64,000 nucleotides of DNA from Parcubacteria group bacterium (GTDB taxonomy: Bacteria; Patescibacteriota; Patescibacteriia; UBA1558; GWA2-36-10): the NCBI GenBank assembly GCA_003104935.1, contig PQAE01000012.1:4988-68987 (forward strand), in the 5' to 3' direction. The translations under genes and the position numbers were made by a program. The notes below the pieces were generated by a model. It ran no database searches. It was not told the DNA's origin and saw only the letters and a list, made by a program, of their open reading frames with translations. This document shows, piece by piece, positions 42,848-55,227 of this stretch (positions are counted from its first letter, which is position 1; every line of letters starts with the position of its first letter).

Positions 42848-42876
42848 TTGACAATATTATAATTATATGCTATAAT
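42848..42876 (+). promoter_or_regulatory. consensus sigma70 promoter (TTGACA, 17-nt spacer, TATAAT)
   Basis: Perfect -35 and -10 hexamers with optimal spacing, upstream of the 2-TM miniprotein. Confidence 0.6.
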
Positions 42877-42922
42877 GAGAGAATAATCAGTGTTCCTAAC
42901 ACCCTATCGTTTGGAGATAGTC

Positions 42923-43102
42923 ATGTTCCTCTGTACTTTTCTTGGCACGCTTCTTGGTGCCGTTACGGGCCTTGAGGTTTACAACGGAACTAACAACTCC
43001 GGTTTGGCATGTGCAAGCTCGATGGCCATCTTCGCCATAGGAATGCTCGTGGGAAGAGTAGTAGTGGCCATCGAGGATTTGCGCAGGCAAATCAAAGGAT
43101 AA
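42923..43102 (+). CDS. small 2-TM membrane protein (59 aa from the ATG with GGAGA RBS; the track ORF starts at GTG 42890)
   Basis: Two hydrophobic helices and a basic C-terminal tail. GC-rich compared with neighbours. Confidence 0.45.
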   Translation: MFLCTFLGTLLGAVTGLEVYNGTNNSGLACASSMAIFAIGMLVGRVVVAIEDLRRQIKG

Positions 43103-43114
43103 GCGCATCATCAA

Positions 43115-43163
43115 AAGAGACTCATTACTTCAATACCAATGAAGACAAATGAGTCTCTTTTCA
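43115..43163 (+). terminator. intrinsic terminator (11-bp stem AAGAGACTCAT...ATGAGTCTCTT followed by TTTTCAGTTT)
   Basis: Perfect 11-bp inverted repeat with a 23-nt loop and a T-run. Confidence 0.55.
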
Positions 43164-50164: not shown

Positions 50165-51606
50165 TGGGCCTTAGTCAGAGAGTTTTTTATAAAAACAAAG
50201 TCTTGCTTACTGATTGCCCTGGTCAGTAGCATAAAACCCAAATAAATTACCGCCCCCGCCAATATAGTCCAGTACCAGACGATATAATCCTGCAAAAAAC
50301 CGATGGCAAACAGCATGATCAGTCCCGACATCACGGTCTTAATCACCGGGGCAAATTCGTCGGCCTTTGGTTTAACTACCGATAAAACGGCATACAGATT
50401 TAAACTGAATAAAAACAAAGTACTGATCGAGGAGGATAAACTAGCTCCCCAAATACCCAGTACGCGTATCAAAATCAAATTTAAAATTATGTTTAAGACC
50501 ATGGTCAGCCCCAGATTTCTAGTATTTATCTTTTGGCGATTAGTGGCGTTAAGAAAACTGGACAAAGAAAAATTAACAAATAAAAACGGTATGCTGGCAA
50601 TCAGCACCTGCAACGGAAATATGGAAAAATGAAACTGGCTGGTGTACATTTTGTCTACTAAGTTTGGCGCCAAGGCGATGATCCCCAAGCTTAAAGGCAC
50701 GGAGATAAAAGCCAAATAATTAAACGATTTAACAAAAGTCTTTTCCAACGCCTGTTGGTCATTTTTAAAATAATTAGAAAAAGCGGGATACAGTGCGGCC
50801 ACAAAAGCCAAAGGAATAAATTGTAGAGCAAAAGTAAGCTTATAGGCGATGCTATAAAAACCGACCGCGGCATCACCCATAAACATCTTTAGAAAAAAAG
50901 TGTCAATATAAGCGTAGATCTTGGCGAAAATAGCCGACAGCGCAAAAGGTAAGGTAAGCAAACTTATATTTTTTATGAACGCCCGGTCATAGAGCATTTG
51001 AAATTTAACCTGCCATTTGCTCTTCAGAATAGCGAGAGAAAAAATAAAATTAAATAAACTAGCAGCTAATAATACTGTCAAGAAAACCGCCACGCTATGG
51101 GTCAGCGACAACATACTCAGACCCAGGATCATGACGATCAGCTGAAATATAATCGTGCCCCAGGATTCATATTTTAGGCTTTGCTTGCCGCGGATATAGG
51201 CATAAAATAGCAAAGTAAAACTATCAATGATAGTAATCAAGGTGGTGATATAAATCAAATTTCTAACCTGGTCGCTGTAAAACAAAAAACTATTTAGTAA
51301 CACCAAAAAAATCGCCGTGGCCAAAGCCAGCATTAATTTTAAGGTCAGGATCTGCTGAAACCAGCGTTGGCCGCCTTCCTGATCCTTGGCCACCTGGCGA
51401 ATAAGTACTGGCGACAAACCCAGATCTACCAATACGGCAAACATAGTAGCAAATGATATGGCAAAAAAATATTGACCCGTGGCCTCGGCTCCCAGACTCC
51501 TAGCTAGAATAGTAAAGTAAATAAAAGATAGAATCTTTTGGCCGATTAAGGCAATCATAAAAAAGGAGGTATTAGCCGTAATTTTTTGAGCATTTACCAT
51601 GTTCAT
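50161..51606 (-). CDS. wzx: polysaccharide/O-unit flippase (Wzx, MOP superfamily)
   Basis: About 12-14 TM helices with an N-terminus typical of PST family transporters. Confidence 0.7.
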   Translation of the reverse strand: MNMVNAQKITANTSFFMIALIGQKILSFIYFTILARSLGAEATGQYFFAISFATMFAVLVDLGLSPVLIRQVAKDQEGGQRWFQQILTLKLMLALATAIFLVLLNSFLFYSDQVRNLIYITTLITIIDSFTLLFYAYIRGKQSLKYESWGTIIFQLIVMILGLSMLSLTHSVAVFLTVLLAASLFNFIFSLAILKSKWQVKFQMLYDRAFIKNISLLTLPFALSAIFAKIYAYIDTFFLKMFMGDAAVGFYSIAYKLTFALQFIPLAFVAALYPAFSNYFKNDQQALEKTFVKSFNYLAFISVPLSLGIIALAPNLVDKMYTSQFHFSIFPLQVLIASIPFLFVNFSLSSFLNATNRQKINTRNLGLTMVLNIILNLILIRVLGIWGASLSSSISTLFLFSLNLYAVLSVVKPKADEFAPVIKTVMSGLIMLFAIGFLQDYIVWYWTILAGAVIYLGFMLLTRAISKQDFVFIKNSLTKAQ

Positions 51607-51647
51607 ATTATATCAAAAAAGGGTAATATATCAATCATTATTAATAC

Positions 51648-51676
51648 TTGACAGATTATAGATAGTATGCTAGTAT
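51648..51676 (+). promoter_or_regulatory. sigma70-type promoter (TTGACA, 17-nt spacer, TAGTAT)
   Basis: Consensus -35 hexamer and 17-nt spacer upstream of sRNA candidate 1. Confidence 0.5.
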
Positions 51677-51683
51677 ATATAGT

Positions 51684-51962
51684 TATTGGTCCTTGAAAAG
51701 GGTCGCCCATACGCATATGTGCCTACCTAGTGCAACGCAGACAGCAGCATCTAGATGACGCTATGTCGGTGGGCTTCCCCACCTAATCCAATACCTTACG
51801 GGGTACAGGTATTGGCGTCCGTTGAGAGCTTCCCCACCTATGCTACATGTGATGTATTTCTGAGAGACCGACCAATATGTCGGGGCACAGGACCAAGCAG
51901 CTCTCGTCCCTCCACCAATAGAGGTATCCCAATCAAATGGGGCCTAGGTGGAGGGATTTTTT
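51684..51962 (+). ncRNA. candidate structured sRNA 1 (about 280 nt), unclassified
   Basis: GC-rich with no credible ORF. Hairpins include GGUGGG-CUUC-CCCACC and CCAAUACC-UUACGGGGUACA-GGUAUUGG. CCCCACCUA motifs recur. The terminal hairpin CCCUCCACC...GGUGGAGGG is followed by AUUUUUU. Confidence 0.45.
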
Positions 51963-51999
51963 AAATCGTATTTATGTTAATTTCTATTATCCACCCCCC

Positions 52000-52028
52000 T
52001 TGACAAAAATATGACCATGTGCTAATAT
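52000..52028 (+). promoter_or_regulatory. sigma70-type promoter (TTGACA, 17-nt spacer, TAATAT)
   Basis: Consensus -35 hexamer and 17-nt spacer upstream of sRNA candidate 2. Confidence 0.5.
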
Positions 52029-52034
52029 ACAAAG

Positions 52035-52162
52035 TTGTACGAACATTACGGAATGTCGGTATCCTACGGGGTACAGATACCGACATTATTAATGAGTCCT
52101 CCCCATTAAAAAAGCAAGGACTCCGAAAAATAACCCCCAAACTTCAGGTTTGGGGGTTTTTT
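52035..52162 (+). ncRNA. candidate sRNA 2 (about 130 nt), sharing a hairpin-loop motif with sRNA 1
   Basis: ACAUU-ACGG-AAUGU hairpin. GUCGGUAUC-CUACGGGGUACA-GAUACCGAC hairpin. Terminator CCCCCAAAC uucag GUUUGGGGG followed by UUUUUU. Confidence 0.45.
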
Positions 52163-52168
52163 ATATGC

Positions 52169-52190
52169 AAAAGCCACCCAGAAGGGTGGC
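52169..52190 (-). terminator. intrinsic terminator of the rplM-rpsI operon (GCCACCC uucu GGGUGGC followed by UUUU)
   Basis: 7-bp GC stem with a tetraloop and U-run on the minus strand, about 55 nt after the rpsI stop. Confidence 0.6.
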
Positions 52191-52245
52191 TTGAACTAGC
52201 AATTTAATGGCTCAAATATCTCTAACTGCGACCAGATCCAGAAAG

Positions 52246-52659
52246 CTAGCGCTTGCTCCACTGCGGAGCTTTACGGGCCTTCTTGAGCCCAGGTTTTTTT
52301 CTTTCTTTGATGCGGGAATCTCTGGTTAAAAATCCTTCCTTGCGTAAAGATGAACGTAGTTCTTCATCAGTCGCCAATAGAGCTCGGGCAATACCGTGAC
52401 GCACACTGTCTGCCTGGCCCTTGATGCCGCCGCCCTGCACTTTGACAGAAATGGATATCTTATCGCGGCCGGTTAATTTCAAAGGTTTTAAAATATTCTC
52501 CTGCCACTCAAAGTATGGGAAATATTCCTTAAAGTCCTTACCGTTCACTATGATTTTGATGCTGGCTACGCGGTCATTTAATATCCGCACGCGGGCGATA
52601 GCGCGCTTGCGCTTGCCTACAGCCGGGGTATAATCTGTTTTTTTGATTGCTGGAGTCAT
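52246..52659 (-). CDS. rpsI: 30S ribosomal protein S9
   Basis: GGG.KGQA....HGIARAL core and C-terminal KKPGLKKARKAPQWSKR. Confidence 0.9.
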   Translation of the reverse strand: MTPAIKKTDYTPAVGKRKRAIARVRILNDRVASIKIIVNGKDFKEYFPYFEWQENILKPLKLTGRDKISISVKVQGGGIKGQADSVRHGIARALLATDEELRSSLRKEGFLTRDSRIKERKKPGLKKARKAPQWSKR

Positions 52660-52661
52660 AA

Positions 52662-53009
52662 TTAACTGATGGTTAACCTTTTTAACATATTCTTGCGCAA
52701 ACGGTTTTTGGGCAACATATCGGTAACGATCTGACGAAAAGCTTTGGCCGGATTTTTGGCCATTAGATCGCTGAGTTTTATGTTGCGGATGCCTCCGGGG
52801 TAACCGCTATAACGGTGATAGGTCTTCGCCTGCAACTTATTACCGGAAAATTTCAAACCCACGGCGTTGGTTACGCTGACGATATCGCCGCAATCTGTAT
52901 GGGCCTGATAACTGGGTTTATGTTTACCCTGCAAGATAAAAGCCACCCGCGAGGCCAAACGGCCGGCGATTTTTCCTTCGGCATCTAGTGTATGTTTTTC
53001 TCTTTCCAT
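52662..53009 (-). CDS. rplM: 50S ribosomal protein L13 (short form)
   Basis: GRLAS.VA..L.GKHKP.Y..H.D.GD motif. Located directly upstream of rpsI. Confidence 0.85.
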   Translation of the reverse strand: MEREKHTLDAEGKIAGRLASRVAFILQGKHKPSYQAHTDCGDIVSVTNAVGLKFSGNKLQAKTYHRYSGYPGGIRNIKLSDLMAKNPAKAFRQIVTDMLPKNRLRKNMLKRLTIS

Positions 53010-53019
53010 AAAAGCAAGT

Positions 53020-53370
53020 TTATACTAGTTCAATCTGGGCCATCTTGGCGCCGTCACCCAAACGCTGACTGATTTTGATAATTCGGCAATAACCGCCTTT
53101 TCTATCCTTGTATTTGGGAGCCAGTACGTCCAGTATTTTCTGCACCGCTTTTTTATCCGGTAGCACCCTAGTCAATAGTTGCTTATTATAGATCGACTTG
53201 ACTTTGCCGCGGGTGATCAGTCTTTCAACCAGCGGACGCAAAGCTTTGGCTTTGGGTTCGGTAGTCACTATCTTTTCATACAATACTAAAGAAACAGCTA
53301 GGTTCTCCATCAAAGCCTTACGGGGCGCTGCCTGACGCTTAAAAATCTTATTTTTATTACGGTGTCTCAT
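53020..53370 (-). CDS. rplQ: 50S ribosomal protein L17
   Basis: MRHRNK..K..R....R.AL..NL N-terminus. Confidence 0.9.
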   Translation of the reverse strand: MRHRNKNKIFKRQAAPRKALMENLAVSLVLYEKIVTTEPKAKALRPLVERLITRGKVKSIYNKQLLTRVLPDKKAVQKILDVLAPKYKDRKGGYCRIIKISQRLGDGAKMAQIELV

Positions 53371-53372
53371 GA

Positions 53373-54164
53373 TTATTTAATTTTCTTTGTCTTTTTTTCT
53401 TCACTGTCTTTATCTTTTTCTTTTCTGGTTTTTTTCTTCTCCTCCTTGACCGGCTCCGCCGTTTCTACCGCCGACTCTTCCGTAATCACAAAAAAATTAA
53501 ATTGATCACGTAGCAGTGCGCCGGCTTTGCTGATCGCTGTGCGGGCATCGATCGTGCCGTCAGTCAGTATATCCATGGTTAATCTTTCATAATTGGTCAT
53601 CTCGCCAACACGCACATTTTCTATATTATAGCCGACATTTAATACCGGGGAAAAACTGGAGTCAATGGCGATATTGCCGATTTCCAGCTTAGCTCTTTCT
53701 TCACGCTGGTCTACCGTCAGATAACCGATACCTTTTTCTACGGTAATTTCCATCGCCAGCTTAGCGTGCTTGTCAGTTAAAGTAGCAATTAGTAAATCTT
53801 TATTGATTATCTCTACCTCGGCATTGGGTTTGATATCGGCGGCAGTCACTTCTTTTTCGCCCTTGACATCAATGGATAATTTAACCGGCTCCGCGGAAAA
53901 ACATTTCAATCTCAATTTCTTGAGATTAAGCATGATCTCCACTAAGTCCTCTTTGACAAAATCTACCGAGTCAAACTCATGTTTAGCCCCTTCCATCTTA
54001 AAGGAAGTCACCGCCGCTCCTTCCAGAGAAGATAAAAGCACGCGACGCAGTGAATTGCCGACAGTAATGCCGAGCCCGGGATAAAAGGGTTCGATCACCA
54101 CCTGGTAGCGATGATTTTTCAGATCGCTGACCGAAATTTTTTCTGGTAATGTTATTTGTCTCAT
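53373..54164 (-). CDS. rpoA: DNA-directed RNA polymerase alpha subunit, N-terminal domain only, with a K/E-rich tail (no alpha-CTD)
   Basis: Alpha-NTD dimerisation and insert domains. Ends in EKKKTRKEKDKDSEEKKTKKIK after about 230 residues. 263 aa, against the usual roughly 330 aa. Confidence 0.8.
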   Translation of the reverse strand: MRQITLPEKISVSDLKNHRYQVVIEPFYPGLGITVGNSLRRVLLSSLEGAAVTSFKMEGAKHEFDSVDFVKEDLVEIMLNLKKLRLKCFSAEPVKLSIDVKGEKEVTAADIKPNAEVEIINKDLLIATLTDKHAKLAMEITVEKGIGYLTVDQREERAKLEIGNIAIDSSFSPVLNVGYNIENVRVGEMTNYERLTMDILTDGTIDARTAISKAGALLRDQFNFFVITEESAVETAEPVKEEKKKTRKEKDKDSEEKKTKKIK

Positions 54165-54220
54165 GGTTGTTATTTAAAATTTTCTCGCCCGCAAAAGGCG
54201 ATATTTTTTATTTTTATTTA

Positions 54221-54841
54221 TTACCGAGAATAGAAATCAACGATTAAGTGGATCTCAATGTTGCGGGGCAAATCAGACTTGTTAGGCAAGCTGGTGACAG
54301 TGGCCGACATATCCTTAGTATTGACCGCCAGCCAGCCAGGCACTTCACGCTCCACTTTTTTCATCATTTCCTCCAGATTTTTCCAATAGGTATTATCTTT
54401 CTTATTTTCCTTAACTTTGATCACTTCGCCCGGCCGAATAGTATAGGAAGGAATATCCACCTTGACGCCGTCCACAGTAAAGTGGCCGTGCGTGACCAGC
54501 TGACGAGCCATCCGTCTGGTCTGGGCCCAGCCCGCTCGATAAACCGCGTTATCCAGACGGGTTTCCAATAGAGTTAAAAAGTTGTCACCGACATCGCCGA
54601 CGATTTTTCCGGCGCGCTCAAAGGTCAGGGCAAATTGCTTTTCCAATAGGCCATAGATCATTTTAGTTTTTTGCTTTTCCAAAAGCTGACGGCCGTACTC
54701 GGAGACCTTGGCAAAAGAGCGTTTGGCACCGTGCATGCCAGGCGGATTATTGCGCTTGACCAACGGATTTTTTAATGTATCCGCTACGTTTTCGCCAAAG
54801 CGACGACTGGATTTATGTCGGGGTTTTAAATTTCTGGCCAT
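54221..54841 (-). CDS. rpsD: 30S ribosomal protein S4
   Basis: MARNLKPRHK..RR.G N-terminus. S4 domain. Confidence 0.9.
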   Translation of the reverse strand: MARNLKPRHKSSRRFGENVADTLKNPLVKRNNPPGMHGAKRSFAKVSEYGRQLLEKQKTKMIYGLLEKQFALTFERAGKIVGDVGDNFLTLLETRLDNAVYRAGWAQTRRMARQLVTHGHFTVDGVKVDIPSYTIRPGEVIKVKENKKDNTYWKNLEEMMKKVEREVPGWLAVNTKDMSATVTSLPNKSDLPRNIEIHLIVDFYSR

Positions 54842-54843
54842 AA

Positions 54844-55227
54844 TTACATTCTTCTGGGTTTCTTAGGACGACAACCGTTATGAGGTATAGGCGTCATGTC
54901 TTTGATCGAATTTACATTTAAGCCGTGGCTGTGCAAAGCCCGGACAGCCGCTTCCCGGCCGGCGCCCACCCCACGCACAAAGACGTCCACCTCTTCCAAA
55001 CCATATTCTTTGGCTTTCTCGATGGCACTACGCACGATAATACCTGCGGCGTAAGGAGTGGCTTTTTTTGGTCCCTTAAAACCGTTCACTCCGGCTGAAG
55101 ACCAGGACAAAAGATTGCCTTGCTGGTCGGTCAGACTGACTAAGGTATTGTTATAAGTAGCTTGGATGTGGGCTTGGCCCTTTTTAACTACTTTCTTTAC
55201 TTTTTTCTTGGCTTTGATATTTGGCAT
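54844..55227 (-). CDS. rpsK: 30S ribosomal protein S11 (start at MPNIKAKKK; the longer track ORF is an upstream extension)
   Basis: Conserved S11 core SFNNTLV...G..L.W.SAG..GFKG..K.TP.AA. Confidence 0.85.
   Translation of the reverse strand: MPNIKAKKKVKKVVKKGQAHIQATYNNTLVSLTDQQGNLLSWSSAGVNGFKGPKKATPYAAGIIVRSAIEKAKEYGLEEVDVFVRGVGAGREAAVRALHSHGLNVNSIKDMTPIPHNGCRPKKPRRM

Follow-up and report, generated by a model that had tools for sequence, protein, structure and literature searches.

A tandem pair of predicted genes between rpsI and wzx in a Parcubacteria group bacterium probably belongs to an uncatalogued family of structured small RNAs

Several kinds of bacterial RNA share some properties with the locus described here. 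Tandem sibling small RNAs (sRNAs), generally known from PrrF1/PrrF2 of Pseudomonas, OmrA/OmrB, and Qrr1-5, are adjacent paralogues that have their own promoters and terminators and have kept one short element in common while diverging elsewhere. RsaE/RoxS of the Firmicutes is a stand-alone RNA of consecutive hairpins followed by a terminator and carries several CCCC-type tracts. The CsrB/RsmZ sponges, whose cognate protein is CsrA/RsmA, present an identical short motif, A(N)GGA, in the apical loops of many repeated hairpins whose copy number varies, and the orphan noncoding RNAs raiA, OLE, ROOL, and GOLLD are multihelix, covariation-supported structures with variable insertions. For Patescibacteria (candidate phyla radiation), no report of an sRNA was found in the searchable literature, the listed papers being judged by title and abstract. 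Here we analyze a 64-kb stretch of contig PQAE01000012.1 from a Parcubacteria group bacterium, an organism of groundwater type with a tiny genome (the window, to which all coordinates refer), in which the gap between rpsI, part of a ribosomal-protein operon, and the sugar-exporter gene wzx holds two plus-strand units, unit 1 and unit 2, each running from promoter to terminator. The two units are probably independently transcribed genes, as predicted from their signals, of one uncatalogued, structured sRNA family that would act in trans through a module common to both.

The gap measures 639 bp, and the description of it in the first-pass annotation, namely, two plus-strand units with no credible open reading frame (ORF) inside and no plus-strand gene downstream, held for the window. 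Each unit begins with a near-consensus promoter with an extended -10 element (TTGACA-17-TAnTAT, with TG), the -10 boxes being TAGTAT and TAATAT, and each ends in a terminator. Only one further site in the whole window matches TTGACA-N14-TGn-TAnnAT. The unit 2 terminator was found by a simple scan. In unit 1, the terminator consists of GC-rich inverted arms of 10 bp (51907-51916/51947-51956) and T6 after them, and the scan misses it because the arms lie 30 nucleotides (nt) apart. The units thus have what is expected of stand-alone, trans-encoded sRNAs (own promoter, own terminator, no coding function, no same-strand gene downstream), and, as with tandem siblings, they are adjacent, separately promoted, and detectably homologous. 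Unit 1 has a GC content of 50%, compared to about 40% in the flanks. The extents of the units and promoters are as follows.

51648-51676, plus strand: unit 1 promoter, -35 TTGACA (51648-51653), 17-nt spacer with TG, -10 TAGTAT (51671-51676)
51684-51962, plus strand: unit 1 RNA (predicted), about 279 nt, 5' end inferred from the -10 box, 3' end at the T-run
52000-52028, plus strand: unit 2 promoter, TTGACA-17-TAATAT with TG before the -10, closely resembling the promoters of the orthologues
52035-52164, plus strand: unit 2 RNA (predicted), about 130 nt, comprising hairpins P3' and P5' and a terminator

In each unit, a perfect hairpin displays the same 11-nt loop, UACGGGGUACA. At the DNA level, the window holds exactly two copies of TACGGGGTACA (51797-51807 and 52065-52075), compared to a chance expectation of 0.65 matches at one mismatch or fewer. 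The first-pass annotation had noted that the loop is carried on stems of different sequence that both pair; this was correct, except that the unit 2 stem has 12 pairs and not 9. Within the loop, GGGUACA was invariant in all six hairpins compared (unit 1, unit 2, and those of the orthologues described below, one of which has two copies), with the preceding 2 to 3 nt varying. A hairpin presenting GGGUACA occurred nowhere else in 2.1 Mb of compared loci.

Conservation in related genomes, suggested earlier as a check, was found. The S9 protein of the window is identical to NCBI PWB38273.1, and its closest species-level relatives are Komeilibacteria metagenome-assembled genomes (MAGs), with 61 to 74% identity. 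An orthologue of unit 1 lies in the same place and orientation in the three closest lineages, L202 (wzx, 77% identity; S9, 84% identity; 623-bp gap), L203 (wzx, 73% identity; about 1.1 kb of sequence upstream of wzx), and L225 (S9, 78% identity; RNA directly downstream of rpsI, its 5' end lost at a contig boundary). The unit 1 promoter is conserved at the same position in L202 and L203 (TTGACA-17-TAATAT, with TG), as is its divergent arrangement with the wzx promoter. Across the aligned gap, the mean column identity of unit 1 and its orthologues is about 56%. The ORFs in the gap are not conserved, and the alignment holds indels of 1, 3, 13, and 185 nt; a coding reading was rejected on these grounds. 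The 185-nt indel is an insertion in the L202 orthologue between box A and P3 (L202 2264-2448, minus strand), which contains a second P3-like hairpin, CCAACGCC-CUAGCGGGUACA-GAUGUUGG, and a 14-bp perfect inverted repeat, CUAGAUAGCUAUAU/AUAUAGCUAUCUAG, around about 100 nt. The P3 hairpin is thus present once in L203 and in L225, twice within the L202 RNA, and in two genes in this genome. Unit 2 is missing from L202, L203, and L225, so that among these it occurs in this genome only. Separately, L203 and L220 are short contigs of one MAG (GCA_964622805.1) that overlap downstream of rpsI (L203 1-280/L220 2012-2142, two mismatches); therefore, the assembly breaks inside the intergenic region.

Comparison of these sequences gave the parts of unit 1, which comprise helices P1 to P5, C-rich boxes, and a terminator.

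51686-51693, plus strand: 5' strand of P1, UUGGUCCU, pairing with 51889-51896 and crossing P5
51700-51779, plus strand: P2, a long irregular hairpin with the base GGG-UC-GCCCA / UGGGC-UU-CCC
51777-51787, plus strand: C-rich box A, CCCCACCUAAU, between P2 and P3
51788-51815, plus strand: P3 hairpin, CCAAUACC/GGUAUUGG, 8 perfect pairs (51788-51795/51808-51815), loop UUACGGGGUACA (51796-51807)
51824-51830, plus strand: 5' strand of P5, GAGAGCU, pairing with AGCUCUC at 51899-51905
51831-51842, plus strand: C-rich box B, UCCCCACCUAUG, immediately 3' of the P5 5' strand
51868-51883, plus strand: P4 hairpin, CCGAC-CAAUAU-GUCGG
51889-51896 and 51899-51905, plus strand: 3' strands of P1 and of P5 (AGCUCUC), separated by a GC linker and including the conserved AAGC(A)
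51907-51962, plus strand: unit 1 terminator, stem UCCCUCCACC/GGUGGAGGGA, 30-nt inner loop with a small predicted helix, then U6

A consensus fold calculated with RNAalifold on the three full-length sequences (unit 1, L202, and L203) contained 69 pairs, 17 of which showed compensatory changes. Overall, 87% of the pairing cells were paired, compared to 36 to 43% when the partners were slid by 1 to 3 columns, and none of 500 shuffles matched the observed pairing values. Support was concentrated in P3 (47/48 cells paired, six compensatory positions), the terminator stem (44/45 cells, four compensatory positions; orthologues carry CCCCCGCGC/GCGCGGGGG), and P5, in which all 30 cells from five sequences were paired with three compensatory positions and only 1 of 2,000 shuffles did as well. 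The earlier proposal that selection acts on RNA structure is therefore borne out by compensatory changes in P3, P5, and the terminator across orthologues. The P3 stem changed from CCAAUACC/GGUAUUGG to CCAAUGCC/GGCAUUGG in L225, and its sequence is identical in three orthologues, although their other helices have diverged. The base of P2 also covaries, reading GGGAUGCUCG/CGAGCAUCCC in L203, and the strands of P4 are swapped in L203 and L202 (GUCGG/UCGAC), with GCUCAU/AUGAGC in L225. Box A has the counterparts CCCCUCCUAUU in L203 and CCCCUACCCUU in L225. P1 is weakly supported; 23 of its 24 cells paired, with a single compensatory position, and this was no better than in shuffles. Several pairs in the conserved helices are G-U pairs, which are A-C mismatches on the opposite strand, and these pairs, together with the promoters and terminators, fix the plus strand as the one that is structured.

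P5 is a long-range helix that emerged from reading the sequences across one another; it is absent from the single-sequence fold and had not been noticed in the first-pass annotation. Its versions are as follows.

Unit 1 (51824-51830 / 51899-51905): GAGAGCU / AGCUCUC
L203: GGGCCU / AGGCUC
L202: GAGUCU / AGACUC
L225: GAGUCC / GGACUC
Unit 2 (52094-52100 / 52117-52123): GAGUCCU / AGGACUC

The surroundings of P5 are conserved as well. In each of the five RNAs, a CCC(C) tract begins 0 to 3 nt past the 5' strand of P5, and in four of them AAGC(A) stands just before the 3' strand, L225 having AAGUC. Moreover, the length of the G-run in the P3 loop tracks that of the C-run after P5: runs of 4 G go with 4 to 5 C (unit 1, unit 2, and L225), and runs of 3 G go with 3 C (L202 and L203). 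This match, which perhaps reflects one evolutionary event, hints at an internal loop-loop contact of the kind typical of compact binding folds.

These comparisons also revised some details proposed for the RNAs. Two of the three C-rich boxes recognized earlier in unit 1 are indeed alike, being copies of an exact 13-mer, GCTTCCCCACCTA (51773-51785 and 51828-51840), but the third, CCCTCCACC, is the 5' arm of the unit 1 terminator, and its pairing with GGTGGAGGG is therefore a plain hairpin and not a pseudoknot. The pseudoknots suggested with GGUGGG and GGUGGAGGG were likewise not sustained, as GGUGGG belongs to the base of P2 and CCCUCCACC/GGUGGAGGG is the terminator stem. The local GGUGGG/CCCACC hairpin of the single-sequence fold was set aside because the comparison favors the P2 base. 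In unit 2, the hairpin CAUU-ACGG-AAUG can be drawn as proposed, but its AAUG is shared with the 12-bp stem, and the minimum-free-energy fold uses the long stem.

The relationship of the two units was established with a covariance model whose only input was the segment from P3 to the terminator of unit 1, L203, and L202, with unit 2 left out. The model detected unit 2 (52054-52164) with 38.7 bits and an E value of about 6e-9, recovered the independent L225 sequence with 87 bits, and matched the second L202 hairpin with an E value of 0.027; it found nothing significant in about 35 other rpsI loci of Patescibacteria and relatives. Since a model made from orthologues alone detects it, unit 2 is a miniaturized paralogue in which P3, P5, and a terminator remain and P1, P2, and P4 are absent. 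The earlier suggestion of an undescribed family with two paralogues thus stands, with the correction that the units are not equivalent, unit 2 being the cut-down derivative. Its promoter context and the string AAGCAAGGaCUCC...CCCCC are common to L202 and L203, and AUGUCGGU is common to unit 2, unit 1, and L225. From these matches we infer that unit 2 would have arisen from a unit-1-like gene by internal deletions, with the P3 stem rebuilt on a new sequence that displays the same loop. The fold z-score of unit 2 is -4.46, and its parts are as follows.

52052-52087, plus strand: P3' hairpin, AAUGUCGGUAUC/GAUACCGACAUU, 12 perfect pairs (52052-52063/52076-52087), loop CUACGGGGUACA (52064-52075)
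52094-52123, plus strand: P5' hairpin, GAGUCCU/AGGACUC, loop CCCCAUUAAAAAAGCA
52132-52164, plus strand: unit 2 terminator, hairpin 52132-52158 plus T-run, found by scan; bidirectional, also serving rpsI on the minus strand

No catalogued RNA accounted for either unit, in agreement with the earlier failure to assign them to RNase P, transfer-messenger RNA (tmRNA), signal recognition particle (SRP) RNA, 6S RNA, or a riboswitch. The 4,227 covariance models of Rfam 15 gave no match at the gathering threshold anywhere in the window; with E values up to 10, the gap gave low-scoring matches only, nearly all on the terminator region, and with E values up to 1, the RNAs of L202, L203, and L225 gave nothing. 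ARAGORN found no tRNA or tmRNA in the window, tmRNA being recognizable by a tRNA-like domain and a tag reading frame. SRP RNA has a helix 8 with a GNAR tetraloop cap and conserved symmetric and asymmetric loops; here no SRP model matched, the strings CAGG and AAGCAGC stand side by side without a hairpin between them, and such a helix is absent from the consensus fold. 6S RNA is a rod-like duplex of about 180 to 200 nt with a large central bubble; here a series of hairpins or a multibranch fold was found, and no 6S model matched. RNase P RNA has conserved P4 sequences (GAGGAAAGUCC / ACAGAA.CCGGCUUA) in a core of about 330 to 400 nt; the P4 sequences are absent from this RNA, which measures about 215 nt plus the terminator, and no model matched. 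Guanidine-II-like ACGR loops were considered and dropped because the pattern is not conserved and has no Rfam match.

Similarly, the systems most like these units differ from them in definite respects. In contrast to the tandem siblings, the second copy here is cut down (without P1, P2, and P4), the retained element lies in a hairpin loop, and its sequence is unrelated. In RsaE/RoxS, unpaired C-rich motifs pair with the Shine-Dalgarno (SD) regions of targets; C-rich boxes that may be unpaired are present here, and no RsaE model matched. Here an extra invariant G-rich loop is present, the RNA is much larger and more structured, and nearby genes lack an SD sequence. Unlike CsrB/RsmZ, each RNA has only one or two of the hairpins, and the loop motif is GGGUACA and not A(N)GGA. 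The variable insertions of raiA, OLE, ROOL, and GOLLD recall the 185-nt L202 domain, but this RNA matches none of them in Rfam, is far smaller, and is very narrowly distributed. Since it fails every specific known family tested, it is, on present comparisons, a candidate new family of stand-alone bacterial structured sRNA.

The distribution of the candidate family was traced through the surrounding locus. In the Komeilibacteria relatives found by scanning a genome collection with S9, rpsI is also followed by wzx, and the gap is only 75 to 185 bp and lacks the RNA; a short gap is likewise present in L204 and L221/L222. Therefore, the units are an insertion into a conserved rpsI-wzx junction. 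In L204, L221/L222, L223, L224, L226, and L227, the RNA is absent from the locus or the sequence ends too early. Comparison of L002 to L006, L012, L204, L221 to L224, and L203 showed that the junction is a variable hot spot, in which unrelated small ORFs occupy the gap in L223, L224, and L203. Those of L223 are two small ORFs led by SD sequences, L224 has a 101-amino-acid (aa) ORF, and L203 has a 102-aa ORF beside the RNA; none of these ORFs had an informative Pfam match. A metagenome scan with the pattern TTGAAAAGGGN{80,105}CYTN{2,3}GGGTACAGR returned 15 matches, none with the hairpin, which were taken as chance. Scans of viral contigs returned nothing beyond a stretch conserved among phage contigs of one unrelated group, and the gap had no meaningful BLASTN match among phages and plasmids. 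As far as sampled, the putative family is confined to a narrow Komeilibacteria-like clade of the Patescibacteria.

On the favored reading, that the units are genes of one trans-acting sRNA family, the most likely architecture of unit 1 would be a short 5' tail, P2, P3, a long P5 arm, and the large terminator hairpin. The P5 arm would consist of P5, an internal loop formed by the C-rich tract and AAGCA, and P4, with P1 either an alternative to P5 or pseudoknotted with it. Unit 2 would be a derived, internally deleted copy that kept the promoter, P3, P5 with its C-rich...AAGCA loop, and the terminator. What both copies keep may then be the working module, namely, GGGUACA in an apical loop of 11 to 12 nt and the adjacent CCCC...AAGCA loop closed by P5, which would be presented in trans to a partner. 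We tentatively suggest that the partner may be a protein or other factor, for which the RNA could serve as a decoy or scaffold, the copy number of the hairpin setting its capacity; we hold this part of the reading with less than even confidence. Recognition by a factor is favored because the P3 stem sequence itself stayed identical in the three orthologues while the other helices diverged, because the hairpin was multiplied, inside a single RNA in L202 and through a second gene in this genome, and because the tracking of the G-run and C-run hints at a loop-loop contact.

Several observations weigh against this reading. The transcription of both units is predicted from sequence alone. P1 and P5 can form together only as a pseudoknot, and the folds that contain one or the other differ by no more than about 1 kcal/mol in each of the three full-length RNAs, so that more than one architecture is possible; since P1 crosses P5, is isoenergetic with it, and does not rise above shuffles, it may be spurious, may replace P5 in an alternative fold, or may take part in a pseudoknot. 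The strands cannot be told apart by folding energy, as the z-score of unit 1 is -4.74 for the minus strand and -2.65 for the plus strand. The independent covariation events are few, as the orthologous sequences come from just four lineages and one of the sequences is truncated. At the rpsI-wzx locus, to which the statement applies, most relatives have no counterpart of the RNA, which is therefore accessory. Finally, a search of the 64-kb window for complements of the loop and of the C boxes brought up no remarkable site, and the complementarity of the loop to mRNA start regions that had been suggested earlier did not materialize there.

The last observation bears equally on the possibility that the RNAs are base-pairing riboregulators, with the GGGUACA loop (by kissing) and/or the C-rich boxes serving as seeds for mRNAs in the manner of RsaE/RoxS and the tandem siblings. 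This main rival would suit stand-alone units that run from promoter to terminator, a 7-nt invariant single-stranded motif common to paralogues, two or three CCCC-type tracts per RNA, and the conserved linkage to the divergent wzx promoter. We nevertheless regard it as rather unlikely. The sole occurrences of TGTACCCC in the window are those antisense to the two units, and matches to TGTACCC or to the complements of the boxes are few and unremarkable. Five genes of the ribosomal operon and two glycosyltransferase genes nearby have no SD sequence with which an anti-SD-like box could pair; therefore, an anti-SD role of the C boxes is weakened, and it was rejected. Moreover, the fold is more elaborate, and the P3 stem more conserved in sequence, than a simple seed carrier needs. 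A target search with RNAduplex returned meaningless long-loop duplexes and was discarded.

It is also conceivable, though improbable, that unit 2 is a decaying partial duplicate without function and that the whole element is neutral cargo of the intergenic hot spot. Unit 2 is indeed absent in L202, L203, and L225 and has lost P1, P2, and P4, and the same gap holds unrelated ORFs in three lineages and shrinks to 75 to 185 bp in most relatives. However, decay would not be expected to preserve a 10/12 match to the promoter consensus with its TG, a perfect 12-bp stem that was rebuilt, a perfect 7-bp P5, an intact loop, and a z-score of -4.46, nor would neutral cargo be expected to retain the structure of unit 1 at the observed mean column identity. 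A variant of the favored reading, in which the module is a new trans-acting conformational switch or an aptamer-like (or catalytic) RNA specific to Patescibacteria, would be a shade less probable again. It draws on the mutually exclusive, isoenergetic P1 and P5 folds of unit 1, and the capacity of the module would be tuned by duplicating the hairpin, within one RNA in L202 and as a second mini-gene in this genome.

That the RNA is a cis-acting leader, riboswitch, or attenuator of a downstream gene is very improbable. The multihelix fold, its two isoenergetic alternatives P1 and P5, and the 102-aa ORF on the same strand after the RNA in L203 would be in keeping with such a role; however, in the window, L202, and L225, no same-strand gene follows, and the RNA ends in a strong terminator that faces the convergent rpsI, while the L203 ORF lies past the terminator behind its own weak promoter-like site (9/12). 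Action at the DNA level, as palindromic protein sites or as recombination or replication hairpins, could account for the perfect inverted repeats at this hot spot between genes but is scarcely tenable, since the arms differ completely around a conserved center, which is the opposite of what a dimeric DNA-binding protein would read, the helices include G-U pairs, the long-range P5 and P2 covary, the oriented promoters and terminators are conserved, and no recombinase or HUH gene lies nearby in the window. A highly divergent SRP, 6S, RNase P, or tmRNA unseen by the Rfam models is just as hard to credit: patescibacterial RNAs can be atypical, and the strings AAGCAGC and CAGG bear a faint resemblance to SRP helix 8, but these families are absent at E values up to 10 in the gap and from the orthologues, ARAGORN found no tmRNA, a helix 8 with a GNAR cap, a rod interrupted by a central bubble, and the P4 consensus are all lacking, and neither absence from the locus in close relatives nor a truncated duplicate is expected of an essential RNA.

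The genes on either side of the units, both on the minus strand, and the signals outside the RNAs are as follows.

50161-51600/51606, minus strand: wzx
51607-51634, minus strand: wzx promoter, TTGATA-16-TATAAT, divergent from that of unit 1 and outside the RNA
52246-52659, minus strand: rpsI

The -10 box of wzx, TATAAT, ends at 51607, and the conserved start codon ATG is at 51600, so that wzx looks leaderless from its predicted signals; the layout is the same in L202 (TATAAT-tagagc-ATG), and L203 wzx has a longer leader with a hairpin. On the minus strand past rpsI there are two hairpins, one at 52171-52192 (AAGCCACCC/GGGTGGCTT) and the bidirectional one at 52132-52158. No recognizable SD sequence was present within 30 nt upstream of rpsI, rplM, rplQ, rpoA, and rpsD (52659-54870). 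The one further promoter of the extended type, TTGACA-N14-TGC-TAnnAT at 42848-42876 on the plus strand, precedes a 59-aa hydrophobic ORF (42923-43102) that, unlike the ribosomal-operon genes, has an SD sequence, GGAG, and is followed by a hairpin terminator (region 42848-43160, plus strand). This ORF could be a gene for a small membrane protein or a toxin-like protein.

Patescibacteria have tiny genomes and few known regulators, and an RNA family backed by covariation is now at hand for them. Its value is bounded by a very narrow known distribution, and the sole clue to its function is the linkage to the wzx glycan-export operon. Within those bounds, the family offers an experimental handle in its precise boundaries, its promoters, a naturally minimal form about 130 nt long, and a candidate recognition module.

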